From the NCBI GenBank assembly GCA_018266845.1, contig JAFDZO010000033.1:39014-63013 (forward strand): 24,000 nt of DNA, read 5' to 3'. The notes under the pieces are model-generated. The model ran no database searches, was not told the origin of the DNA, and was given only the letters and a program-made list of their open reading frames with translations. Both the position numbers and the translations under genes were made by a program. This document shows positions 4,057 through 23,670 of this stretch, in pieces (position 1 is the first letter of the stretch; each line of letters starts with the position of its first letter). The stretch is from Bacteroidota bacterium. GTDB taxonomy: Bacteria; Bacteroidota; Ignavibacteria; Tepidaquicellales; Tepidaquicellaceae.

Positions 4057-4737
4057 CTAGTTACTCAATGAATAAACTATAATATTTGTTCCCATCTTAA
4101 ATGACTCCTCTTTTTTTTCCGGCGGGTCGTTATGCTCTTTCGTATCAGCCCATCCGTCAGATATATTTGTTTCGTAGGTATAATACATGCAAAGTCTTCC
4201 GTTTTTATAAATGCCGAATCCCTGTGCCGGCTTACCATCGTGCTCATGAATTTTTGGCAGTCCGTTAGGAAATTTAAAATGCGAAGAATATATCGGGTGC
4301 GAAAAAGGCAGCTCTTTCATTTCATCATTCGGGAATATTTTCTTTATCTCCTTTCTGAAAGCTTCATCCATTCCGTAGTCATCATCGGCATAAAGAAATC
4401 CTCCGCTATCACAATATTTTCTCAAGCGGGCAGCTTCTGTTTCGGAGAAAGAAATATTACCATGACCAGTCAGCAAAATAAAAGGGTAATTGAATATATC
4501 ATCTGACGCGACATCAACAGAATAAAATTTCGGTTCATCTACATCAATTGTGGTGTTTTTCTTGAGGTAGTCCATCATGTTTACTTCGGCAGAGGGGTCG
4601 TTATACCAGTCGCCGCCGCCTGAGTATTTCAGGCGGGCGATTTTAAAAGGGGATGAATTTTTGTTCACACCGTCATTCTGCGCATAAATATTTGTGCCTA
4701 TAAGTAGAAAAAAAAATACAACTGCTAAAATTTTCAT
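4057..4737 (-). CDS. Secreted DUF4159-like protein
   Basis: 226-aa ORF with signal peptide MKILAVVFFFLLIGTNIYA/Q. The motif IARLKYSGGGDWYNDPSAEVNM, followed by FILLTGHGNISFSETEAARLRKYCDSGGFLYADDDYG, matches my memory of the DUF4159 N-terminal signature. The stop lies 6 nt from the convergent upstream gene. Confidence 0.75.
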   Translation of the reverse strand: MKILAVVFFFLLIGTNIYAQNDGVNKNSSPFKIARLKYSGGGDWYNDPSAEVNMMDYLKKNTTIDVDEPKFYSVDVASDDIFNYPFILLTGHGNISFSETEAARLRKYCDSGGFLYADDDYGMDEAFRKEIKKIFPNDEMKELPFSHPIYSSHFKFPNGLPKIHEHDGKPAQGFGIYKNGRLCMYYTYETNISDGWADTKEHNDPPEKKEESFKMGTNIIVYSLSN

Positions 4738-5044
4738 AATAAATTTTACTTCTTTGTTTGCATAATAGTTTCATTGTAGCAAAATTGTAACATTTTACTT
4801 GTAACTTCCCCTTCCTTTTTACAAGGGAGAACATGTGCTGCATTGTCGCATTTTTGCCGCATTTATTTTAGAAATATTGAAAAAACAATAACGGCAATCT
4901 AAAAAAATCCGGCATTGACGGGTTTTTGTCGGGTTTTGTTTACATTCCACTTCAACGGGATTCTGCAAAATAAAAGAGCGATTAAACACGTTTCCTATCG
5001 GCATTTAATATAATAATTACCTCATTTCTATGCAAAACAATTCC

Positions 5045-5072
5045 GCCTATTACTAGTAATAGGCATTTTTTT
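5045..5072 (+). terminator. Orphan intrinsic-terminator-like hairpin, or alternatively a palindromic operator, 40 nt upstream of the ABC operon start codon
   Basis: Perfect 20-bp palindrome GCCTATTACTAGTAATAGGC (5045-5064), which folds as an 8-bp stem with a CTAG loop. It is followed immediately by ATTTTTTTC on the + strand. No + strand CDS precedes it within 1 kb. The minus-strand flank (GGAATTGTTTTGC) is less T-rich. Confidence 0.45.
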
Positions 5073-5111
5073 CTCAATTCCTTTTTGCAAATGATTTGTA
5101 TAAATTAACAA

Positions 5112-5774
5112 ATGCTCAGAATCAGTAATTTACAAAAAAGGTTCAGAAACGCCGATGGTGAAGTAACGGAAGTGATAAATATACCGGATTTCTCTTTGCA
5201 GGAAAATTTTAGATTAGCAATTTCCGGCAGGAGCGGTTCCGGCAAAAGCACATTTTTAAATCTTGTTTCAGGAATTATCTCTGCCGATAGCGGTGAAATT
5301 ATTTTTAACGATAAAAACATTTCATCCTTAACCGAATCTAAGCGGGATATATTCCGCTCGCAAAATATCGGATACATTTTCCAGACATTCAATCTGCTTC
5401 AGGCATTTACAGCAATAGAAAATGTAATGCTCGGAATGATGTTCGCTGGAAAAAGCGGCAGGAAAAATGCGGAAGCTCTATTAAACAAAGTCGGACTTGG
5501 CAAAAAAATAAACCATAAGCCTGCTGAGCTTTCAGTTGGGGAGCAGCAGAGAGTTGCCATTGCGCGCGCAGTAGCAAATTCTCCGAAGCTTATCTTAGCC
5601 GACGAGCCTACTGCAAATCTCGATGCAAAGAACGGCGGGATTGCAATTGACCTGATAAAAAATATCTGTGAAGAAAACAAAATTTCTTTGATGCTTGTTT
5701 CCCATGAAGCGGATATTATTAACAGGTTTGAGCACAAAATTAATTTTGAAGATATAAATAAGGTAAGTGCATGA
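5112..5774 (+). CDS. ABC transporter ATP-binding protein, LolD/MacB-type
   Basis: Walker A GRSGSGKST, Q-loop IFQ, signature LSVGEQQRVAIARA, Walker B LILADEPT, D-loop NLD, H-loop VSHE. The stop overlaps the next gene's start (ATGA at 5771-5774). Confidence 0.9.
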   Translation: MLRISNLQKRFRNADGEVTEVINIPDFSLQENFRLAISGRSGSGKSTFLNLVSGIISADSGEIIFNDKNISSLTESKRDIFRSQNIGYIFQTFNLLQAFTAIENVMLGMMFAGKSGRKNAEALLNKVGLGKKINHKPAELSVGEQQRVAIARAVANSPKLILADEPTANLDAKNGGIAIDLIKNICEENKISLMLVSHEADIINRFEHKINFEDINKVSA

Positions 5775-7066
5775 GCATCTTCAGAATCGTTCTTAAAAAT
5801 ATTAAGCAAAGAAGTCTTGCATCGGTTTTAACTGTCTTTTCTATTATGCTGGGAGTTGCACTTGTAATTTCAATTTTGATTCTTAAGCAGGAAAGTCAGG
5901 ATGCGTTTAATCAGACTGCAACAGGATATGAATTAATTATCGGACCCAAGGGCAGCTCGCTGCAGCTTACGCTGAATACGATTTATCATATCGGAGTGCC
6001 GATACAAAATATTCCCTACGATACATATACAAAGCTGAAAGATGATAAGCGCGTTAAGCTTGCAATTCCCTACGTACTCGGAGATAATTATAAAAATCAC
6101 AGACTGATTGGCACTGTACCGGAAATTTTTTCAGAGTTTAATTATCAGAAAGATAAAAAGTACAAGCTGAAAGAAGGGAAGTTCTTTGAAAAAGATTTTG
6201 AAGCAGTGATAGGAAGTGAAGCAGCTTTGAAAACAGGACTGAAGGTTGGTGATAAATTTTCCGGCTCTCACGGAGTTGAAGCATATGAAAATGCAGGGGA
6301 TATTTTAGACCATAAGGAATTTAAGTTTACTGTTACGGGAATTCTTGAGAAAACTTTTACTCCCTCAGATAATGTAATTTTTACTTCGATGAATTCCACA
6401 TGGGGAATTCATCATCATGAAGCGGAGGAAAAACGGAACGAGAATAAACCAAAAGATGAACATAATCATAACCACGATGAGCATTTACATGAAATGAAAG
6501 ATTCAGAAAAATCAGTTACTGCAGTATTAATCAGCTTAAAAAGCCCTGTTTACTTTGATTTGCTTCGCAGACAGGTAAACGAAAACAAATATGATGGAAT
6601 AAATGCGCAGGCAGTTATTCCGGTTTTTGAAATAAAACAACTCTTTGATATAATCGGGAATATTAATTCCATATTGATTGTAATTGCTTACTTAGTGGTG
6701 TTTGTTGCAGTGATTTCAATTTTAGTTTCGATTTACAATTCAATGAATGAACGCAAAAGGGACATTGCAATAATGCGCTCGCTCGGAGCGCGTAAAAATA
6801 CAATACTGAATATAATTCTTACAGAAGGACTTTTAGTAAGTTTTATTGGTGGAATACTCGGAATTATTATTTCTCATTTATTAATTTTTATTTTAAAAGA
6901 TACAATTTCAAATGTTGCAGGAATACAAATTAACGGAACCGGATTTTATCCGTTTGAATTATATATATTAACAGGGACAGTTTTACTGGGAGTTTTTGTT
7001 ACACTAATTCCTGCGTTGAAGGCATACAACACCGATGTTGCAAGTAATCTTGCACCGGTAAGTTAA
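5771..7066 (+). CDS. ABC transporter permease, FtsX/MacB fold (1 TM, large periplasmic domain, 3 TM), with a His-rich insertion
   Basis: 431 aa. The N-terminal TM is LASVLTVFSIMLGVALVISILIL. A ~260-aa extracytoplasmic domain follows, then the C-terminal FtsX-type bundle (ILIVIAYLVVFVAVISILVSIYNSMNERKRDIAIMRSLGA..., plus 2 more TMs). The insertion WGIHHHEAEEKRNENKPKDEHNHNHDEHLHEMKD lies in the periplasmic domain. Confidence 0.85.
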   Translation: MSIFRIVLKNIKQRSLASVLTVFSIMLGVALVISILILKQESQDAFNQTATGYELIIGPKGSSLQLTLNTIYHIGVPIQNIPYDTYTKLKDDKRVKLAIPYVLGDNYKNHRLIGTVPEIFSEFNYQKDKKYKLKEGKFFEKDFEAVIGSEAALKTGLKVGDKFSGSHGVEAYENAGDILDHKEFKFTVTGILEKTFTPSDNVIFTSMNSTWGIHHHEAEEKRNENKPKDEHNHNHDEHLHEMKDSEKSVTAVLISLKSPVYFDLLRRQVNENKYDGINAQAVIPVFEIKQLFDIIGNINSILIVIAYLVVFVAVISILVSIYNSMNERKRDIAIMRSLGARKNTILNIILTEGLLVSFIGGILGIIISHLLIFILKDTISNVAGIQINGTGFYPFELYILTGTVLLGVFVTLIPALKAYNTDVASNLAPVS

Positions 7067-7071
7067 AAAGA

Positions 7072-7686
7072 ATGAACAGATTGAAAAAAAATATCGCAAA
7101 CAACGTTCCTTATCTCGGCTATGCAGTTTTTATAATGGCAATTTGTTTAAGTTTTTTTTCCAATAAAGATACGAGCGGAAAAAACTTTGTATATAATACC
7201 AAAGGCGAGAAAGTTGAATTAAGCAAAATAAATTTTTCGGGAAAAAGCGATTCATCAAAGAAAGGCTCTCTTGACGGCTCGCAGCAGATTAATACTCCTA
7301 AAACTGATTTTACTCCTATAGATACATCAAAACCGTTCAACAGGCTTACCTTCAGAGTTCTAAGGACGTATGTTCCGGGGCAGCCGGTACCAAAAGACAT
7401 AAAAGAATTAGACGGAAAAAATGTTGAGATACTTGGCTTTATGACACCTCTGAACGCGCTGGAAAAAATGGACGAGTTTCTTTTGTGCTCTCAGCCGCCT
7501 TTAAGCTGTTACTGCGCTCCTCCTATTTTCATAAATGAGATAATATATGTAAAGCTTGTGAACGGAGTCAAAACAGATTATTTAACGGGAGCAGTTACCG
7601 TAAAAGGCAGGCTTAAAGTTAATATGGATGTCAAAGACGAATACTCCGATGTAATTTATACTATAGAAGGAGTTTCCATTTATTAA
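7072..7686 (+). CDS. Membrane-anchored DUF3299-like protein
   Basis: 204 aa with N-terminal anchor YLGYAVFIMAICLSFF. The C-terminal block VEILGFMTPLNALEKMDEFLLCSQPPLSCYCAPPIFINEIIYVKL matches my memory of the DUF3299 pattern: G-F-x-x-P-L...FLL...C..C..PP..N-E-I-I-x-V. There is a 5-nt gap to the permease gene. Confidence 0.7.
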   Translation: MNRLKKNIANNVPYLGYAVFIMAICLSFFSNKDTSGKNFVYNTKGEKVELSKINFSGKSDSSKKGSLDGSQQINTPKTDFTPIDTSKPFNRLTFRVLRTYVPGQPVPKDIKELDGKNVEILGFMTPLNALEKMDEFLLCSQPPLSCYCAPPIFINEIIYVKLVNGVKTDYLTGAVTVKGRLKVNMDVKDEYSDVIYTIEGVSIY

Positions 7687-8357
7687 TGAACTCTCAAAGG
7701 TTACATATAGTAAAAGAGGAAGTTTCAGAGCATTTAAAATTTACGGTTATCTCCGTCCTTCTTTGCCTTTCCCTTATCCTTGTTATAAATAAATTCGCGC
7801 AAGGATACATGAATGAAACAACATTCAGCAGTATTCATTATATCCATTTATTTCTTGCTACTATTACTCCCGTTGCAATATATTATGCTTTCAATCCAGA
7901 TGTTGTTCGCGCAATCGGCGTTGGTATTTTATCGTCCTCTATAGGATGTACAGTCAGTGATTCCGTTTTTCCTTATATAGGCGGACACTTATTCGGATAC
8001 GATATGAAGCTGCACATCTGCATTCTCGAAGAGCCGCAATATGCGTGGGCTGCAATTTTTATAGGAGCATTTGCCGGGATTTTTCTTCCCCGCTTATTTA
8101 AAAAAATTACACACGTAACACATTTTGTTCATACATTCGCAGCTACCACCGCTGCAATAGTTTACCTTCTAACATTCGGATTTACCGGCAGCGATACAAT
8201 TCAGATAATTTATTTGATAATAATCCTTTTCATCTCAGTTTTAGTACCCTGTTTATTGAGTGATATTGTAATTCCAAGTTTAGTATTTTCTGAATCAAGC
8301 TTTAATGAGATTATGGAACATCACCACAGCCATAGTCATAGCCACAATCACGATTAA
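7686..8357 (+). CDS. Uncharacterised 6-TM membrane protein with a duplicated C-x-x-S-D motif and a C-terminal His tail
   Basis: 223 aa with six hydrophobic segments. GCTVSDSVFP (nt 7947-7961 for CTVSD) lies in TM3 and PCLLSDIVIP (nt 8250-8264 for CLLSD) in TM6. The C-terminus is MEHHHSHSHSHNHD. The start overlaps the upstream stop by 1 nt (TAATG at 7684-7688). I recognise no family. Confidence 0.75.
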   Translation: MNSQRLHIVKEEVSEHLKFTVISVLLCLSLILVINKFAQGYMNETTFSSIHYIHLFLATITPVAIYYAFNPDVVRAIGVGILSSSIGCTVSDSVFPYIGGHLFGYDMKLHICILEEPQYAWAAIFIGAFAGIFLPRLFKKITHVTHFVHTFAATTAAIVYLLTFGFTGSDTIQIIYLIIILFISVLVPCLLSDIVIPSLVFSESSFNEIMEHHHSHSHSHNHD

Positions 8358-8363
8358 AGAAAA

Positions 8364-10157
8364 ATGCCAAATACAAAAAAGATTAAGCCGGAAATTTTTT
8401 TAAAAGCAAAAAAATTCGGCTTTTCCGATAAGCAGCTTGCCGAAATTTTAAACACAACAGAAGATAAAATAAAAAAATACAGGGAAGAGAATAATATATT
8501 CCCTGTGTATAAAACCGTTGATACCTGCGCCGCTGAGTTTGAAGCAAACACTCCTTATCATTATTCTACCTATGAAAAATACAATGAGGTAACATCATCA
8601 GATAAAGAAAAGATTATTATTTTAGGAGGGGGACCGAACAGAATAGGGCAGGGAATTGAGTTCGATTACTGTTGTGTGCGCTGTGTAAAAGCACTGCGTG
8701 AAGAGGGATATGAAGTGATAATGATTAACTGCAATCCCGAAACTGTTTCAACTGATTACGACATTACCGATAAGCTTTACTTCGAGCCGCTGACAGTTGA
8801 AGACGTGATGAATATAGTTCGCTACGAAAAAAATGTAAAAGGAATAATTGTCAGCTTTGGGGGACAGACTCCGTTAAAGCTTTCCAAAGAGCTTGAAAAA
8901 AACGGATTAAAAATTCTCGGCACTTCTTCGGAAGATATTGACGTTGCAGAGGATAGGAAAAAATTCGGAAAGCTTCTCGATAAATTGAAAATTCCAAAGC
9001 CCGATTATGGCACTGCTTTAGATTTAAAAGAAGCAAAGAAAATTGCAAACAAAATCGGCTACCCTGTTCTTGTCCGTCCTTCGTATGTACTCGGCGGAAG
9101 AGCAATGCAGATTGTTTATAACGATGAGCAGCTCACTGAATTTTTCTTTGAAGCAGCAAAGCTTTCTGGCAAGCACCCTGTATTGATTGATAAATTTTTA
9201 GAGGAGGCGCGAGAGATTGATGTTGATGCAATCGGCGACGGCAAAGATGTTTACATAGGGGGAATTATGCAGCACATTGAGGAAGCCGGAATTCATTCCG
9301 GCGACAGCACTTCAATTCTTCCTCCCATTTCTCTTTCAAATAAAAATTTAAAAGAGATAAAAGATTATACCAAAAAGCTAGCAAGAGCATTGAATGTAAA
9401 AGGTTTATTGAATATTCAATATGCCATCAAGGATAATGTTGTGTATGTCATTGAAGCGAATCCAAGAGCATCGCGAACGGTTCCATTTGTAAGTAAAACC
9501 ACTGGAGTACAGCTTGCTACCATTGCAGCGAAAGTTATTGCAGGAAAAGAGCTGAAAGATTTTAAGCTGAAAAAGTTTGATGACATAGAGTACATAGGAA
9601 TAAAAGAATCTGTTTTTCCGTTCCAGAAATTTCCGAAAGTAAAAATGTTTCTTGGTCCCGAAATGCGCTCGACGGGAGAGGTGATGGGTATCGGCTCAAC
9701 ATTCGGTGAGGCAATGTTGAAGGCACAAACTTCAACAGGAAATCCATTACCCATTGAAGGAAAAATTTTCGTAAGCTTAAACAATAACGATAAAAAACCA
9801 AAGTCATTAAAAATTGTTAAGCAGTTTGCCGAACTTGGTTTCGGAATCATTGGAACAATCGGTACCGCAAAATATCTTAATGAAAACGGAATAGAGGCAG
9901 AGCCGGTATTTAAAGTTCTTGAAGGAAGACCGAATGTTGTGGATAGAATAAAGAACGGCGACATAAAGCTTGTGATAAATACTCCGCTGGGTAAGGAATC
10001 GCGTTATGATGAATACTCTATAGGGTGGGCTGCAGTGCAGCAGAAAATTCCGTTTATTACGACACTTTCCGCTGCAGAATCAGTTGTTCAGGGGATTCAA
10101 AATTTGAAATCAGGCAAAAAAGATGTAAAGAGCCTGCAGGAATATTACACAAAATAG
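8364..10157 (+). CDS. carB: Carbamoyl-phosphate synthase large subunit, C-terminal half only (split carB)
   Basis: 597 aa. It starts inside the oligomerisation domain (FGFSDKQLAEIL...FPVYKTVDTCAAEFEANTPYHYSTYE). It continues through the second ATP-grasp unit (IIILGGGPNRIGQGIEFDYCCV, GYPVLVRPSYVLGGRAMQIV, IEANPRASRTVPFVSK). It ends with the MGS-like allosteric domain (GKIFVSLNNNDK...LVINTP). No first ATP-grasp half lies upstream. Confidence 0.9.
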   Translation: MPNTKKIKPEIFLKAKKFGFSDKQLAEILNTTEDKIKKYREENNIFPVYKTVDTCAAEFEANTPYHYSTYEKYNEVTSSDKEKIIILGGGPNRIGQGIEFDYCCVRCVKALREEGYEVIMINCNPETVSTDYDITDKLYFEPLTVEDVMNIVRYEKNVKGIIVSFGGQTPLKLSKELEKNGLKILGTSSEDIDVAEDRKKFGKLLDKLKIPKPDYGTALDLKEAKKIANKIGYPVLVRPSYVLGGRAMQIVYNDEQLTEFFFEAAKLSGKHPVLIDKFLEEAREIDVDAIGDGKDVYIGGIMQHIEEAGIHSGDSTSILPPISLSNKNLKEIKDYTKKLARALNVKGLLNIQYAIKDNVVYVIEANPRASRTVPFVSKTTGVQLATIAAKVIAGKELKDFKLKKFDDIEYIGIKESVFPFQKFPKVKMFLGPEMRSTGEVMGIGSTFGEAMLKAQTSTGNPLPIEGKIFVSLNNNDKKPKSLKIVKQFAELGFGIIGTIGTAKYLNENGIEAEPVFKVLEGRPNVVDRIKNGDIKLVINTPLGKESRYDEYSIGWAAVQQKIPFITTLSAAESVVQGIQNLKSGKKDVKSLQEYYTK

Positions 10158-15752: not shown

Positions 15753-17039
15753 TTAAATTTTTACAGTGAATTCGGTTCCAAGCCCCTTTTCACTTTTTAC
15801 TTCTATAGTTCCATTGTGAAGTTCTATTATTTTTTTGACAATATTAAGTCCTAAACCATATCCCATAATAGCTTTGTTGCGCGACTTATCCACCCTATAA
15901 AACGGTTCAAAGATAAAGCTAAGTTCTTGTTTAGGTATTCCTATGCCTTTATCAGTAACAGTTAATATAAATCCTTCTGTATTATCCGGGTTGGGAACTG
16001 CATTCACTAATACCTCTTCTTTAGAATATTTTAAAGCGTTGTCTATCAGGTTTTTTATAACTGTTTCAATTTTTTCCCTATCTGCTTTTACAATAAAGGG
16101 CTTGTTTTGTTTTTTAAAAATTATCCGGTCATTTAGAATTTTATCTGCGGATGATTGTATTAAAGCATTTAGGTCAAACCCGGAAATTTCCGGCTTTGAT
16201 AGAGCGTTACCCTTTTTGTAGTTATCAAGAAGTTCTCCAACCATATGCTCCATTTCATTTACATCGTCTTTAATTTTGGTTTTAATTTTCTCATCGTCAA
16301 TAAACTCAGACGATAGTTTCATTCTTGTCAAAGGTGTCCTCAACTCGTGAGATACATCAACAAGCAAAGTTTCTTTTGCTTTGATTGAGCGTGAAATGTT
16401 TTCCGTCATATTGTTAATTAATATCGCAAGTTTACCAAGCTCATCTTTTGTCTCCACGTTTATTTTATAATCAAGCTGACCTTTGCTTATCTCTTCAACT
16501 CCTTTTGAAAGAATTTTAACGGGACTGAATAGCCACCTTAAAACAAAATATAAAACCACGATGACAATTGTTATAAAAGCTATTACTGAAATAATAGCCT
16601 TAGGCAGGTTGATAAAATCTCTGGGCAGCCATGGCGCAACGGTAACAAATCCGTTTGGCAGTTTTTTAACTGCATACAATCTGTAATTATAGTATGTATA
16701 AGTTTTAGATGAATCGTAGGATGAGGAGTTAAGTATTTCCTGAGCCGGGGCTATAGTAGGGTCAGTAGTCCATCTGAAGTTGTTTAGCTCATAGCGGATA
16801 TTCATATTCAAATCGTTGGCAAGCTGCTTTGCCTTGTTGGTATCCGGCGGCATACCAATATCCTCAATGATGTATTTACTCAACAAAACAGGGTATCTGT
16901 TTACCATGCTTTGAGGGTTTCTATCTAATGTAAAATAAATTAGAAAGGCAGCAAGTCCGTTAACAAGAATTACAAAACCAATCAGGATAAGAACCAGCTT
17001 TAAAAAAATTGAGGATTTAATTTTCGTCAAAATCGGCAT
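15753..17039 (-). CDS. Sensor histidine kinase (2 TM, ~120-aa periplasmic sensor, HAMP, HisKA, HATPase_c)
   Basis: 428 aa with H-box SHELRTPLT, N-box NLIDNALKYS and G-boxes DKGIGI and GYGLGLNIV. The TMs are LVLILIGFVILVNGLAAFLIYF and IISVIAFITIVIVVLYFVL. The start overlaps the regulator gene by 23 nt. Confidence 0.9.
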   Translation of the reverse strand: MPILTKIKSSIFLKLVLILIGFVILVNGLAAFLIYFTLDRNPQSMVNRYPVLLSKYIIEDIGMPPDTNKAKQLANDLNMNIRYELNNFRWTTDPTIAPAQEILNSSSYDSSKTYTYYNYRLYAVKKLPNGFVTVAPWLPRDFINLPKAIISVIAFITIVIVVLYFVLRWLFSPVKILSKGVEEISKGQLDYKINVETKDELGKLAILINNMTENISRSIKAKETLLVDVSHELRTPLTRMKLSSEFIDDEKIKTKIKDDVNEMEHMVGELLDNYKKGNALSKPEISGFDLNALIQSSADKILNDRIIFKKQNKPFIVKADREKIETVIKNLIDNALKYSKEEVLVNAVPNPDNTEGFILTVTDKGIGIPKQELSFIFEPFYRVDKSRNKAIMGYGLGLNIVKKIIELHNGTIEVKSEKGLGTEFTVKI

Positions 17040-17706
17040 AGAATATATATCCTATTGACTGGACAGTTTTAATCAGCTGCCCTGTCTTGTCTTTTAGTTT
17101 TGTTCTTAATCGTGATACCATTACATCTATACTTCTATCGTAGTATTGCCAGCTCATCCCTTTTGTTTTTTGCATTAAGTATTCGCGTGATAAAACTTTT
17201 CCGTTATTTTTTGCGAACAGGACAAGCAGGTCAAATTCTGTCGTAGTTATATCTATTTTTTTATTGCTGAATTTTACAGAGCGGTTCCCTGTATTTATTA
17301 TGATGTTTTTAAATCTTATCTCTTCGGAAGGGATAACCTTTCCTTCCACTCTTCTGAATATTGCCTGTATTCTCGCAAGAAGTTCTCTCGGTTCAAAAGG
17401 TTTGGCAAGGTAGTCATCAGCGCCAAGTTCAAGCCCGACAATCTTATCTGTAGTTTCTCCTCTTGCAGTAAGCATAATAACGGGGATAAGAATGTTTTTC
17501 CTAAGCTCTTTTAAGGTTTCAAATCCGTCCATATCCGGCATCATTACGTCAAGGATAATCAGGTCATAAGAGGCTGTTTTTAAATTTGCCAGAGCGTTTA
17601 CCGGATTATCAAAATGAGTAACCTTGTAAGAATATTTTTCAAGATAGTCTTTTAAAAGCTCGCCGAGTTTTGCATCATCGTCTATGACAAGTATGTTTTT
17701 ATTCAT
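17017..17706 (-). CDS. OmpR/PhoB-family response regulator (receiver plus winged helix)
   Basis: 229 aa. Receiver features are ILVIDDD, phospho-acceptor context LIILDVMMPDMDG, TARG and KPF. The C-terminal trans_reg_C-like block is LTTTEFDLLVLFAKNNGKVLSREYL...VMVSRLRTKL...IKTVQSIGYIF. Confidence 0.9.
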   Translation of the reverse strand: MNKNILVIDDDAKLGELLKDYLEKYSYKVTHFDNPVNALANLKTASYDLIILDVMMPDMDGFETLKELRKNILIPVIMLTARGETTDKIVGLELGADDYLAKPFEPRELLARIQAIFRRVEGKVIPSEEIRFKNIIINTGNRSVKFSNKKIDITTTEFDLLVLFAKNNGKVLSREYLMQKTKGMSWQYYDRSIDVMVSRLRTKLKDKTGQLIKTVQSIGYIFYADFDEN

Positions 17707-17717
17707 AACCTATTTAC

Positions 17718-17762
17718 AATAATAAAAATAAAATAGGCGGTATTAAACTGAATAATACCGCC
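17718..17762 (-). terminator. Rho-independent terminator or attenuator between the Spy/CpxP-like gene and the regulator gene
   Basis: A 10-bp stem, GGCGGTATTA (17736-17745) with TAATACCGCC (17753-17762), around a 7-nt loop. On the minus strand it is followed by TATTTTATTTTTATTATT. It sits 13 nt after the Spy-like stop and 12 nt before the regulator ATG. Confidence 0.7.
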
Positions 17763-17774
17763 CATGTTTTGGAA

Positions 17775-18302
17775 TTATTTTTCCGGGTTAAAGTGTTCGA
17801 TTCTATCAACGATTTTTTCTCTTAACGAGGTCATCTTATCGGCAGCCTGTTTTCTCTGTTCAGGAGTCAGGATGTTATGAAACTCGACTATCTTGCTTTC
17901 AACATAATCTTTCATTTCATTCCTTTCTGCCTGGTTTTGCTGAAACATATTTTCAAGCGATGCTTTATCCAGATTATCCTTTGTAAATTCAGAAATGAAT
18001 TTATCGAACTTTTCTTTTCTCACCGGCTTTTTTGATTCCATTTTTTCTTTTATATCAGTTTTCAAAGCGGAAATCCTTGCTTTCTGGTCATTTGTCAGTT
18101 TCATATCTTCAGTAACTTTATCAATCAGAATTCCGATAGGTCCTTCCTTTTTTAAGTCATGAATTTTTTTGGCAAAGCTAATTCCGGCAAACGAAACTGT
18201 TAGAATTAGAAAAGCAAGTAAAGAGAAAAGAATTTTTCTTTTTGCGGTTGAAAAAATTCCTTTTTTTGTTCCATTGTTTTTTTGAGTCATTTGGGTTTCC
18301 AT
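17775..18302 (-). CDS. Spy/CpxP-family periplasmic protein (two LTXXQ motifs)
   Basis: 175 aa with N-terminal hydrophobic segment ILFSLLAFLILTVSFAGISFA. The two LTXXQ motifs are KLTNDQKARISALK and ILTPEQRKQAADKM, in a K/E-rich helical protein. A GGAG sits 8 nt upstream of the ATG. The start could instead be the internal Met at codon 5. Confidence 0.75.
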   Translation of the reverse strand: METQMTQKNNGTKKGIFSTAKRKILFSLLAFLILTVSFAGISFAKKIHDLKKEGPIGILIDKVTEDMKLTNDQKARISALKTDIKEKMESKKPVRKEKFDKFISEFTKDNLDKASLENMFQQNQAERNEMKDYVESKIVEFHNILTPEQRKQAADKMTSLREKIVDRIEHFNPEK

Positions 18303-20861: not shown

Positions 20862-21272
20862 TTGATGAGTGACCAAGAAAAGTTAGGGAATACAATTCCT
20901 CTTACAATATTAATCGCTGAAGATAATCTTATTAATCAAAAGCTGATTGCAAAAATTTTTAACAGCATGGGCTACAATGTTGATGTTGCCGATAACGGAG
21001 TGAAAGCGCTTGAGCATATGGAAAAAAAATCTTATGAGCTTGTAACGCTTGATATTCAAATGCCTGAAATGGACGGAATAACCTGCGCTAAAGAGATTCA
21101 TAAAAAGTATGGAGAAAGCAGACCTGTGCTGGTTTCTATAACAGCAAACATTCAGCTTCTTAATCCTGAAGGATTTGATAAGGATGGAATGGATGATGTA
21201 ATAACCAAGCCGTTTAAAGCAGAAGATTTAAAGAATATGATTCTTAAATGGTTCGGAAACAAACAGAATTAA
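20862..21272 (+). CDS. Stand-alone response-regulator receiver domain (CheY-like)
   Basis: 136 aa. Features are ILIAEDN, phospho-acceptor context LVTLDIQMPEMDG, SITAN and ITKPF. There is no output domain. The start may be the TTG at 20862 or the ATG at 20865. Confidence 0.85.
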   Translation: MMSDQEKLGNTIPLTILIAEDNLINQKLIAKIFNSMGYNVDVADNGVKALEHMEKKSYELVTLDIQMPEMDGITCAKEIHKKYGESRPVLVSITANIQLLNPEGFDKDGMDDVITKPFKAEDLKNMILKWFGNKQN

Positions 21273-21282
21273 ATTTATTTTT

Positions 21283-23670
21283 TTGGCAAAGAAGAGCAGT
21301 TTTAAATCAGTATATTTTACAGGAATATTTCTTACCGCGCTTAGTACTCTCTTATTAGAATTTACTCTCACCCGTATTTTATCCGTTTCGCTTTGGTATC
21401 ACTTTGCATTTATGGTAATCAGTGTGGCGTTGCTCGGTTTTGGCGTTAGCGGAGTGTTTCTTTCACTGAATGAGAAAATAAAAAAAGTAGGCACGGATAA
21501 GCTTTTAACATGGCTTTCAATTTTGTATGGCGTTTCCATTTTGGCATCTTTTTTAATAATTAACCAGATTCCGTTTGACCCGTTCAGTCTTTTAACCGAT
21601 ACCATTCAATTTTTGTATCTGCCGCTTTATTATCTTCTTATCACGATTCCATTTTTCTTTTCAGGGCTGATAATTTCAATTCTGCTTTCATACTTCAAAA
21701 ACGAAATTTCAAAATTATATTTTTTTGATTTAATAGGCGCAGGCGCTGCATGTTTTGCATTTGTATTTTTTATACCTGCCCTTGGCGGCGGCGGAACTAT
21801 TGCAGTTATTGCCTGTCTGGCGTTTGTTAATGCGGCTATATTCGGATTTAAAGAGCACAAAACTCTTTCTCTTTCTGCGGGAGTGCTTGCGCTGCTTAGC
21901 TTATTCTTTTTAGCCGGCGGTGGATTATCAATTAACTCTTCACCGAATAAAATTTACGGCAATTATATTAAATCCCGTCCTGATCTCAATGTATTTTCCG
22001 GCTGGAATACTTTTTCTAAGATAGACGTAATGAAGGAAGAAGAAAAATCAGAAGACGGCTATGATATTATGCTTGCTATCATAGATGACGGTAATGCAAC
22101 TACGAATATTCCCAATGTTAAAAAATTTCCTTTAGAATCAAAGCCTGCTGATGCTTCAAACATGGCATTTGCATCAAAGGATACAGTGAATAATGTGTTT
22201 ATTATCGGTTCTGCAGGAGGCGGTGAAATTCTTGCAAGTCTTTATAATAATGCGAACAATGTTACAGCGGTTGAGATTAATGGAATATTGAACGATTTGA
22301 TTTCAAAAGATATGGCTTACTGGACGGGACCATTGGTAAAGAATAATCCGAAAGTAAAGCTGATAACTGATGATGCGAGAAATGTAATCACAAACTCTCC
22401 TGTAAAATATGATGTAATTATTTCGGCTCACACAATTTCCGCTTCGGCTGTTTCCAGCGGCGCAATGAGTATGGTTGAGAATTATATTTTAACTAAAGAG
22501 GCAGTTGACGAATACATAAGTCATTTGAATGACAGAGGGATAATTTATATTTCACGCCCTGAAACGCAAATACCAAAGTTAATTACCACGCTAAAAAAAT
22601 CTGTAAGTGATTTAACGGATGGAAAAGATAACGGAAAGAACGATATAATGATTTTTAGAAGACCTCCGAATGATTTTGAAAAAGAAAAAAGCTTTCTTGC
22701 AGGAGTGCTTTTTAAAAAAGGCGGTTTTAATTACAACGATATTATTAAAATCAAAAATGAGGCTTCAAAGCTTAGCCTTGATATTGAATACGACCCTCTT
22801 TCAAAACAGGAAGGTTATTACAAGCAGTTAATAGAATCGGAAAATATAGATAACGAAATTAATAGCTCGAAGCTGAATATTACTCCGGCTACGGATGATA
22901 AGCCTTTCTTTGACAGGAATATCGGTTTTTCAAACCTGTCGTTTGATGGAATAAAAGAAACTTTTTCACAGGATGATAAAGCAATTCTTGCTTTAAAAGA
23001 CAAGCCCGTTGCAGAGACAACTTTATTGGCAATTCTCGTACAGACAGTCTTAATTTCATTTATTCTAATTCTTCTCCCTTTGAGAATTTTCAGAAAAGAT
23101 AAATCCGGCGAGCCTGTTGATAAAAAATTTCTTATCTATTTTGCATGTCTTGGGCTGGGATATATTATGCTGCAGATTTGTATGATACAAAAGTTTACTC
23201 TTCTTCTCGGTCAGCCTGTGTTTACGCTGCTGACTGTTGTTTCTACTATGCTTGTAGCTTCAGGCATAGGAAGCTTTTATTCTAAAAAACTTTTTAAAGA
23301 TAAAAAAATAATTTTTATTGTTATTGCTGTATATGCCGTTATACTGGGAATTCTGAATCCTGTTCTGTTCAAAGCGTTTGCAAGTTATGGCTTATATCTC
23401 AGAATCATCATTTCTGTGATATTAATTTTTCCGTTAGGTTTCTTTATGGGAATGCCCTTCCCTTCAGGGCTGGCATTGATAAATGACGAGCAGAAAAAAT
23501 TTATTCCTCTTGCTTGGGGAGTAAACGGATTTTTTTCTGTAATAGGTACTGTATCTGCAATGATACTTGCGATGACTGTAGGATTCAAAATGGTCTTCAT
23601 TATAGCGGGACTTGTTTACCTGTTAGCCATGCTACTTATAAGCAGCCGGCTTAAATTAAAAACCGTGTAA
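21283..23670 (+). CDS. Polytopic membrane protein with a central spermidine-synthase-like (class I MTase fold) domain; fused membrane/spermidine-synthase-like family
   Basis: 795 aa with a TTG start. About 7 TMs lie at residues 1-215 and about 6-7 TMs at residues 580-795. The central soluble domain carries VFIIGSAGGGEILASL...VTAVEIN...YDVIISAHT...LNDRGIIYIS. This parallels SpeE blocks (IIGGGDGG / VEID / DVIIVDSTDP) but with the acidic catalytic positions replaced. Confidence 0.8.
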   Translation: MAKKSSFKSVYFTGIFLTALSTLLLEFTLTRILSVSLWYHFAFMVISVALLGFGVSGVFLSLNEKIKKVGTDKLLTWLSILYGVSILASFLIINQIPFDPFSLLTDTIQFLYLPLYYLLITIPFFFSGLIISILLSYFKNEISKLYFFDLIGAGAACFAFVFFIPALGGGGTIAVIACLAFVNAAIFGFKEHKTLSLSAGVLALLSLFFLAGGGLSINSSPNKIYGNYIKSRPDLNVFSGWNTFSKIDVMKEEEKSEDGYDIMLAIIDDGNATTNIPNVKKFPLESKPADASNMAFASKDTVNNVFIIGSAGGGEILASLYNNANNVTAVEINGILNDLISKDMAYWTGPLVKNNPKVKLITDDARNVITNSPVKYDVIISAHTISASAVSSGAMSMVENYILTKEAVDEYISHLNDRGIIYISRPETQIPKLITTLKKSVSDLTDGKDNGKNDIMIFRRPPNDFEKEKSFLAGVLFKKGGFNYNDIIKIKNEASKLSLDIEYDPLSKQEGYYKQLIESENIDNEINSSKLNITPATDDKPFFDRNIGFSNLSFDGIKETFSQDDKAILALKDKPVAETTLLAILVQTVLISFILILLPLRIFRKDKSGEPVDKKFLIYFACLGLGYIMLQICMIQKFTLLLGQPVFTLLTVVSTMLVASGIGSFYSKKLFKDKKIIFIVIAVYAVILGILNPVLFKAFASYGLYLRIIISVILIFPLGFFMGMPFPSGLALINDEQKKFIPLAWGVNGFFSVIGTVSAMILAMTVGFKMVFIIAGLVYLLAMLLISSRLKLKTV

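Follow-up and report, generated by a model that had tools for sequence, protein, structure and literature searches.

We describe a four-gene locus, g1 to g4, in a 24,000-nucleotide (nt) stretch (the window; all coordinates refer to it unless another locus is named) of contig JAFDZO010000033.1, from a metagenome-assembled genome (MAG) of the Ignavibacteria. The locus is real, partly novel and predicted to handle metal. Its first three genes (the trio) encode a split ATP-binding cassette (ABC) transporter of type VII, whose permease carries a histidine-rich periplasmic loop, and a periplasmic DUF3299 protein. The system type to which the trio belongs, that of ZrgABCDE and PA4063-PA4066, is known but poorly understood, and the trio represents a new variant of it. 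The fourth gene encodes a protein with six transmembrane (TM) helices whose family appears to be undescribed in Pfam, NCBIfam and the PDB. We read the whole as a Zrg-type machine for periplasmic capture and hand-off, with a built-in histidine loop, that is co-expressed and would probably cooperate with a new metal carrier, g4; we hold this reading with about as much confidence as doubt.

According to this proposal, the locus would consist of two separable modules (g1 to g3, and g4) under one promoter. The histidine loop and the DUF3299 domain would capture metal in the periplasm and then hand it over, and the ABC ATPase would power this periplasmic step by mechanotransmission. The two halves of g4 would supply two pseudo-symmetric His2-Cys-Asp ligand sets in two inverted 3-TM repeats, and the protein would be the route of the metal across the membrane. 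The identity of the metal, its direction of travel and a physical cooperation of g3 with g4 are inferred here; the gene anatomy, homologies, repeat, conservation, topology, co-occurrence pattern and fusion were observed.

The four same-strand open reading frames (ORFs) reported in the initial annotation were all found at the coordinates it had given (Table 1), and its junctions match the sequence to the base: an ATGA overlap between g1 and g2 (5771-5774), a 5-nt gap (AAAGA) between g2 and g3, and TAATG between g3 and g4 (7684-7688). Being long, with strong family matches and conserved homologs, these ORFs are not chance features. The close relatives of the locus also carry the Ignavibacteria label. 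Downstream, a gene that the initial annotation had left unmentioned, for the C-terminal half of the carbamoyl-phosphate synthase large chain (CPSase-half), starts 6 nt after the end of g4, with no terminator-like site between them, so that the four genes are not a cleanly delimited unit. This gene is probably co-transcribed with g4; it is the housekeeping anchor of a syntenic slot and lies outside the system. It must be noted that the CPSase large chain is split here, its C-terminal half being encoded as a stand-alone protein.

The g1 to g3 trio and its histidine-rich loop

The g1 product matched ABC_tran with an E-value of 1.1e-31, and its top NCBIfam matches were LolD, DevA, YbbA, FtsE and MacB, with LolD (TIGR02211) the first of them. 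The permease g2 scored above the cutoffs of both FtsX (PF02687; 68.6 bits, cutoff 25.5), which covers its C-terminal 3-TM domain, and MacB_PCD (PF12704; 51.5 bits, cutoff 27). Its AlphaFold2 (AF2) model (pLDDT 77.7) matched MacB, LolE, S. pneumoniae 5xu1, HrtB and YbbP in Foldseek, with E-values down to 6e-17 and TM-scores up to 0.68. Both proteins fell below the cutoffs of the Lol equivalog models (204 vs. 307.75 bits for LolD and 60 vs. 362 bits for lolCE). The g1-g2 pair is a split type VII (MacB-fold) ABC transporter, and the hidden Markov model (HMM) scores uphold the LolD/MacB-type and FtsX-fold calls that had been made for these two genes.

The third protein matched DUF3299 (PF11736) with 47 bits against a cutoff of 22 (E = 3.5e-12) and, in a phmmer search, PDB entry 4hsp_A (E = 6.7e-6), which is PA4066 (PMC8561739). 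A hydrophobic N-terminal TM anchor comprises residues 12-30. In its cysteine cluster, LCSQPPLSCYCAPP, C146 is invariant and C148 nearly invariant, and C146-Y-C148 aligned to C-I-H of PA4066. The initial annotation had described g3 as a DUF3299-like protein with such a cluster, which agrees with the score and with the cluster located here. Assignment of g3 to TIGR03943, a family considered for its two-component permease pairing, was rejected (E = 0.092; 12 bits vs. a cutoff of 88.8) and serves as an analogy only.

In Vibrio, the His-rich zinc binder is the product of zrgA, the 4-TM MacB-like permease that of zrgB and the ATPase that of zrgC; zrgD codes for a small single-TM protein and zrgE for one of the DUF3299 family. 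Zinc limitation induces these genes 75- to 205-fold (PMC9817125, PMC9820375). ZrgD is missing from some Vibrionaceae (PMC9817125). The system promotes growth when zinc is limiting and is, in this regard, uptake-like in growth assays (PMC9820375). The homologous operons of Vibrio and Pseudomonas are regulated by Zur or zinc (PMC9817125, PMC9820375, PMC11481552). The framework of Zrg and PA4063-PA4066 in which the initial annotation had placed this locus was therefore right, including its DUF3299-like accessory (PMC9817125, PMC9820375). No newer mechanistic work on such systems was found in the literature.

The His/Asp/Glu-rich insert of g2 lies within the periplasmic domain, and residues 229-240 are disordered in the AF2 model. 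Its length and sequence vary, and it is His/Asp/Glu-rich in most of 16 sampled homologs, down to 41% identity. Just upstream of it, all of the 17 permeases compared (down to 41% identity) have the histidines H167 and H181. A different arrangement was found in a high-GC DUF3299 operon (L101), whose permease is 30% identical to g2 over its full length: a gap falls exactly at the insert, H167 and H181 are lacking, and a separate 161-aa His-bearing protein is encoded between the permease and the DUF3299 gene. The presence of the loop in one case, and its absence where a separate small His protein exists, fits a capture element built into the permease, which is how the initial annotation had interpreted the locus. 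Additionally, no binder of the ZrgA/PA4063 type (DUF2796) was found at 4057-10157 nor in the ORFs that were scanned in other parts of the window. The g2 loop may substitute for the DUF2796 binder and, by analogy, would perform the low-affinity metal capture that is done elsewhere by ZrgA/PA4063.

The g4 family and its genomic contexts

A word-indexed search recovered 10 relatives of g4, and an exhaustive profile search yielded 320 representative clusters, of which 86 reached E ≤ 1e-30. The members span Ignavibacteria, Planctomycetota, Dependentiae, Dehalococcoidia, the candidate phyla radiation (CPR), and DPANN and Hadarchaeota archaea. No Pfam or NCBIfam family matched g4 itself, and no model of either database matched the g4 domain in the 105 members scanned, in which the only hits were sub-threshold Zip and CbtA matches arising from His-rich inserts. 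The g4 profile had no match among PDB sequences at E ≤ 10. Placement of g4 in a known metal-transporter family (ZIP, CDF, NicO, CbtA or others in Pfam/NCBIfam) was rejected, as none gave a match above its cutoff. The AF2 model of g4 (pLDDT 77, pTM 0.73) consists of six long helices and had no structural neighbour in a Foldseek search of the PDB, the best hit being a TRIC channel with a TM-score of 0.39.

Across 65 diverse members, H16, H54, D92, P96, G127, H146, H149, C189, D193 and P197 are invariant, and E12, H51, S91 and H110 nearly so; the invariant His, Cys and Asp residues sit within TM helices. The two halves of the protein are homologous and form a 3+3 internal repeat (hhalign 96.7%, E = 4e-10); in each half, a helix with HxxH is followed by one with CxxSDxxxP. 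As far as we have found, this pair of motifs is undescribed. Family-wide counts of lysine plus arginine, read by the positive-inside rule, indicate an N-in/C-in topology; one ligand set therefore faces the periplasm and the other the cytoplasm, and the His tail is cytoplasmic. The model and the positive-inside statistics back the six TM helices assigned in the initial annotation, which had left the protein without a family; the database searches leave it so, with strong metal-ligand signatures.

His tracts, defined as at least 4 His in 12 residues, were found in 43% of the g4 members (55/129) and in 2.3% of the neighbouring proteins (12/517). They are variably placed, at either terminus or within loops, and the mean His content is 6.0% in g4 members vs. 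1.8% in the neighbouring proteins. Carriers of Zn/Co/Ni, among them CDF, ZIP and NicO, typically have paired ligands one turn apart on adjacent helices, together with cytoplasmic His-rich tails. By analogy with these carriers, we infer for g4 the role of a transporter of divalent transition metals (Zn2+-like). The family comprises unannotated, widespread membrane proteins whose ligand signature is clear and whose structure has no precedent, present in the reduced genomes of CPR, DPANN and Dependentiae.

Some members carry additional sequence. In P0118, helices 3 and 4 are separated by a His-rich insert about 130 residues long, and P0025 and P0016 are extended by long His/Glu-rich stretches at the N-terminus or in a loop. 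In P0130 the g4 domain is fused to an S-adenosylmethionine (SAM) methyltransferase whose top NCBIfam matches are weak and of the ArsM type. No further domain fusion was found among 40 longer members, only His-rich extensions; the fusion to DUF3299 is described next.

The neighbourhoods of g4 were analyzed at loci of the GTDB species level, gathered with the narrower family alignment (A1) rather than the diverse one (A2), and DUF3299 and g2-type FtsX genes were sought with HMMs on six-frame translations within about 8 kb. g4 adjoins g1 to g3 on the same strand only in the clade of the window, at ≥60% identity (L009, L011, L014-L018). Among 77 g4 loci outside this close clade, a single one, L094, has DUF3299 or a g2-type FtsX within that distance. 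There, P0105 (588 aa) joins a g4 domain through one extra TM helix to a DUF3299 domain (29 bits, cutoff 22). The contig (63.5% GC) opens with the C-terminal end of an FtsX permease and continues with a 176-aa small protein, the P0105 fusion and a PpiC rotamase. The L101 operon is the unfused version, with an ABC ATPase, a MacB_PCD+FtsX permease, the 161-aa small protein, a TM-anchored DUF3299 protein and a rotamase. The two small proteins are 50% identical and had no match in Pfam or among PDB sequences; their homology to ZrgA was rejected for want of support from either, and they are candidate functional analogs of ZrgA/PA4063. Given that g4 is N-in/C-in, the extra helix of the fusion is what a periplasmic DUF3299 domain would need. 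The occurrence of g4 in ABC-FtsX-DUF3299 operons of two very distant lineages, as a neighbour in one and as a fusion in the other, is difficult to account for unless g4 and DUF3299 are functionally related.

A number of observations weigh against the capture and hand-off reading. Besides the fusion, 75 other species-level g4 loci have no DUF3299 or g2-type FtsX gene within about 8 kb. g4 is not a conserved fourth component: outside the close clade, the L094 locus is the one in 77 to carry DUF3299/FtsX. As for the co-occurrence that the initial annotation had proposed to check, linkage within about 8 kb is lacking at those 75 loci and present at L094, where the fusion lies within an ABC-FtsX-DUF3299 operon. 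In sister Ignavibacteria, the slot upstream of CPSase-half holds the trio alone (L095-L098) or g4 alone (L008), so that the modules are separable and neither requires the other in cis. The commonest partner of g4, in 33/77 loci, is a potA-potB-potC-potD-like operon which g4 heads on the same strand (L005, L007, L042, L047, L049 and L055-L093; Dependentiae/Babeliales and related MAGs). The top matches of these partners are PotA/B/D, below cutoffs, and no His tract was found in 131 proteins of three pot-like clusters. Arginine decarboxylase (PvlArgDC) adjoins g4 at 2 of the remaining 26 loci. Moreover, g3 contains no His at all, PA4066 shows no evident zinc binding (PMC11481552), and PA4064/65 has been proposed as a pyochelin-Co exporter (PMC11481552). 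The g4 model is of moderate confidence and has no structural analog. Finally, the inverted repeat in front of g1 (see below) gave only chance-level matches outside the g1 promoter in 1.25 Mb of related loci and is absent upstream of the trio-only loci, and no gene for Fur/Zur or another metal regulator was found in the window.

The other g4 neighbours are mixed. At 19 Ignavibacteria loci (about 40% identity) they are unrelated and include a CxxCxxCC protein, and at the remaining 26 loci they include metal-related genes (CDF, 2; DtxR-type, 2; Fur, 1; YbjQ, 1) and rRNA methyltransferases. In L008 and L095-L098, the g4-only and trio-only loci, the gene just upstream encodes a NuoG-like Fe-S protein. 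A functional tie between g4 and CPSase-half was rejected, as CPSase-half also follows the trio at loci without g4.

The first alternative, doubtful though to be taken seriously, is that the trio is an exporter of a metallophore or metal chelate from the periplasm or membrane to the outside, g4 being an independent metal transporter that shares a metal-responsive promoter without any cooperation. The separability of the modules is in its favour, as is the occurrence of g4 in archaea, CPR and Dependentiae with no DUF3299/FtsX gene within about 8 kb; moreover, the characterised type VII ABC systems all expel, extract or activate periplasmically and none is known to import (PMC11481552, PMC12646458). 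However, the g4::DUF3299 fusion implies direct cooperation of at least those two parts, no gene for a MacA-type adaptor or an outer-membrane channel was seen next to the trio, and Zrg of Vibrio acts like an uptake system when growth is assayed (PMC9820375).

The fusion also suggests a more ambitious form of the capture and hand-off reading, which we consider unlikely as it stands: the g4 family would be a transmembrane conduit usable by DUF3299-containing type VII ABC systems, with DUF3299 docking on g4 and passing Zn2+ to two stacked His2-Cys-Asp sites while the ABC pair powers capture and hand-off. If true, this would be the first type VII ABC machine driving import via a separate carrier, and g4 would represent a new transition-metal transporter family across bacteria and archaea.

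It is quite unlikely that g4 is no metal transporter at all, that is, that it is a polyamine or small-cation carrier or a His/Cys/Asp membrane enzyme whose position upstream of CPSase-half is inherited synteny. The potABCD-like operon as the commonest context, the arginine decarboxylase neighbours, the methyltransferase fusion P0130, the lack of a fold or family match to known metal transporters and the g4-CPSase linkage, which lasts to 46% identity without the trio (L008), all agree with that view. They are set against His tracts at variable positions in 43% of members, two symmetric His2-Cys-Asp sets on adjacent helices, the metal-homeostasis neighbours and the fusion of g4 to DUF3299 in a Zrg-like operon. 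Finally, a Lol lipoprotein-release or antimicrobial-peptide/macrolide (MacB, BceAB-like) system with the histidines as incidental low complexity, for which the top NCBIfam matches (LolD and LolC/E) and the resemblance of the fold to LolCDE and MacB could be adduced, is highly improbable in view of LolD and LolCE scores far under their equivalog cutoffs, the constancy of the DUF3299 partner (window clade, L095-L098, L100/L101), as in Zur-regulated systems, the invariance of H167 and H181 and the maintained composition of the His loop.

Upstream region and other features of the window

The region upstream of g1 is a 374-nt intergenic region with a divergent DUF4159 gene on its other side. It contains a 7-1-7 inverted repeat (Table 1). 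This repeat lies in a 34-nt block directly upstream of g1, GAATTCCTTTTTGCAAATGATTTGTATAAATTGA, that is identical in relatives (L009, L011 and L014-L017), outside of which the intergenic region diverges. In L018 there is a perfect TGCAAACAGTTTGCA together with a second copy of the 7-1-7 element. The geometry is that of Fur-family operators. The element is a candidate operator and/or promoter element, as judged from its conservation and position. It could not be assigned as a Zur box, given that no second regulon member was found and that it is missing at the trio-only loci.

Further upstream, GCCTATTAC-TA-GTAATAGGC forms a perfect 9-2-9 palindrome with a T-run after it; the outer arms of this palindrome (CCTAT...ATAGG) are kept in L009, L011 and L014-L016. 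A terminator is not expected at this site, since both flanking genes start in the region, and the palindrome is a candidate hairpin or operator. Rfam gave no matches over the whole window, and no riboswitch was found in the 374-nt leader region.

The same intergenic region has direct repeat pairs with an 11-nt period (GNCGNNTTTTT-GNCGNNTT) at 4845-4863 and 4917-4935 on the + strand (2 vs. 0.01 expected). In relatives, the same motif (GACGAATTTTTGACGGATT) is found in 1-3 copies at this place and in this orientation; it occurs at no other position in the 98 loci. These pairs could be a response-regulator binding site or a local repeat element. Across the clade, the DUF4159/g1 intergenic region is rich in repeats and, at about 370-770 nt, unusually long. 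Tandem microsatellite-like repeats (GCATTGTT, CATAACT units) were observed in L016 (about 5100-5250) and L015 (about 2700-2800).

About 8 kb from the locus, a possible envelope- or metal-stress module on the minus strand (15753-18302) combines a histidine kinase and an OmpR-type response regulator with a periplasmic LTXXQ (CpxP/ZraP-like) protein, whose Metal_resist match is weak. On the plus strand, a 795-aa ORF (21283-23670) had only a weak spermine/spermidine-synthase match (E = 1.7e-4, just below the cutoff), and a stand-alone response-regulator receiver gene lies just upstream of it (20862-21272).

Table 1. Coordinates of genes, motifs and upstream elements of the locus (window positions, except in the last two rows)
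Feature	Position (nt)	Strand	Description
9-2-9 palindrome GCCTATTAC-TA-GTAATAGGC	5045-5064	none	perfect; T-run after
7-1-7 inverted repeat TGCAAAT-G-ATTTGTA	5086-5100	none	12 nt upstream of g1 ATG
g1	5112-5774	+	220 aa; LolD/MacB/FtsE-type ABC ATPase
g2	5771-7066	+	431 aa; 4-TM type VII (MacB-fold) permease with periplasmic domain
g2 H167	6266-6277 region	+	just upstream of His insert
g2 H181	6305-6322 region	+	just upstream of His insert
g2 His/Asp/Glu-rich insert	6410-6493	+	residues 214-241; within periplasmic domain
g3	7072-7686	+	204 aa; membrane-anchored periplasmic DUF3299 protein, PA4066/ZrgE homolog
g3 Cys cluster LCSQPPLSCYCAPP	7483-7524	+	residues 138-151
g4	7686-8357	+	223 aa; 6-TM protein with 3+3 repeat, undescribed family
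g4 half-1 HxxH	7836-7847	+	
g4 half-1 CxxSDxxxP	7947-7973	+	
g4 H110/C112	8010-8021	+	
g4 half-2 HxxH	8121-8132	+	
g4 half-2 CxxSDxxxP	8250-8276	+	
g4 cytoplasmic His tail HHHSHSHSHNHD	8319-8354	+	residues 212-223
Carbamoyl-phosphate synthase large chain, C-terminal half	8364-10157	+	597 aa
Small His-bearing protein, L101	3009-3494		between permease and DUF3299
Small His-bearing protein, L094	145-675		between permease and DUF3299

Comparison with known systems

Small 6-TM carriers with 3+3 repeats or paired helix motifs are known in several families, such as CDF (HxxxD/DxxxD), NicO/RcnA, MntP, GDT1 and CcdA/DsbD. By analogy, g4 shares with them the six helices, the 3+3 duplication, the paired ligands and the His-rich cytoplasmic tails or loops; however, there is no detectable kinship in sequence or fold, and membership in any of them is unsupported.

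With the type VII ABC systems MacB, LolCDE, FtsEX, HrtBA, YbbAP and Spr0694-95, g2 shares its fold and domain order (TM1, a periplasmic Porter/Sabre-type domain and three more TM helices), and g1 the type of nucleotide-binding domain. Those systems have no DUF3299 partner, no periplasmic His-rich loop and no linked 6-TM protein, and the locus scores under every type VII equivalog cutoff.

The operons of L101, L100 and L094 are nearer in content. They have the same ABC-FtsX-DUF3299 core, with a permease 30% identical over its full length and, in L094, the g4 domain. They differ from the locus in that this domain is fused N-terminally to DUF3299 via an extra TM helix (L094), that a separate small His protein is encoded, that the permease lacks the His loop and that a rotamase follows.

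ZrgABCDE and PA4063-PA4066 share with the locus the one-operon arrangement of a split LolD-like ATPase, a 4-TM MacB-like permease and a periplasmic DUF3299 protein, g3 being a direct sequence homolog of PA4066, and both have a His-rich periplasmic element. In contrast, the locus lacks ZrgA/PA4063 (DUF2796), its His-rich element being a loop of the permease, and its operon has no ORF for ZrgD (DUF2607, about 100 aa, single TM). Compared with PA4066/ZrgE, g3 is TM-anchored and has CxC in place of CxH. The locus also adds the 6-TM g4, and its host is an Ignavibacteria MAG and not a gammaproteobacterium. Systems of this type are strongly zinc-regulated and contribute to virulence, and their permease fold is not known for transport across the cytoplasmic membrane; the literature is split between zinc import and chelate export as their role. 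In this regard, the locus and the L094 fusion indicate that the ABC-FtsX-DUF3299 core reaches well beyond Proteobacteria and that a separate protein or a loop of the permease can serve as its His-rich capture element, and they nominate a partner that can be mutated, a 6-TM protein with two symmetric His2-Cys-Asp motif sets that is sometimes fused to DUF3299.

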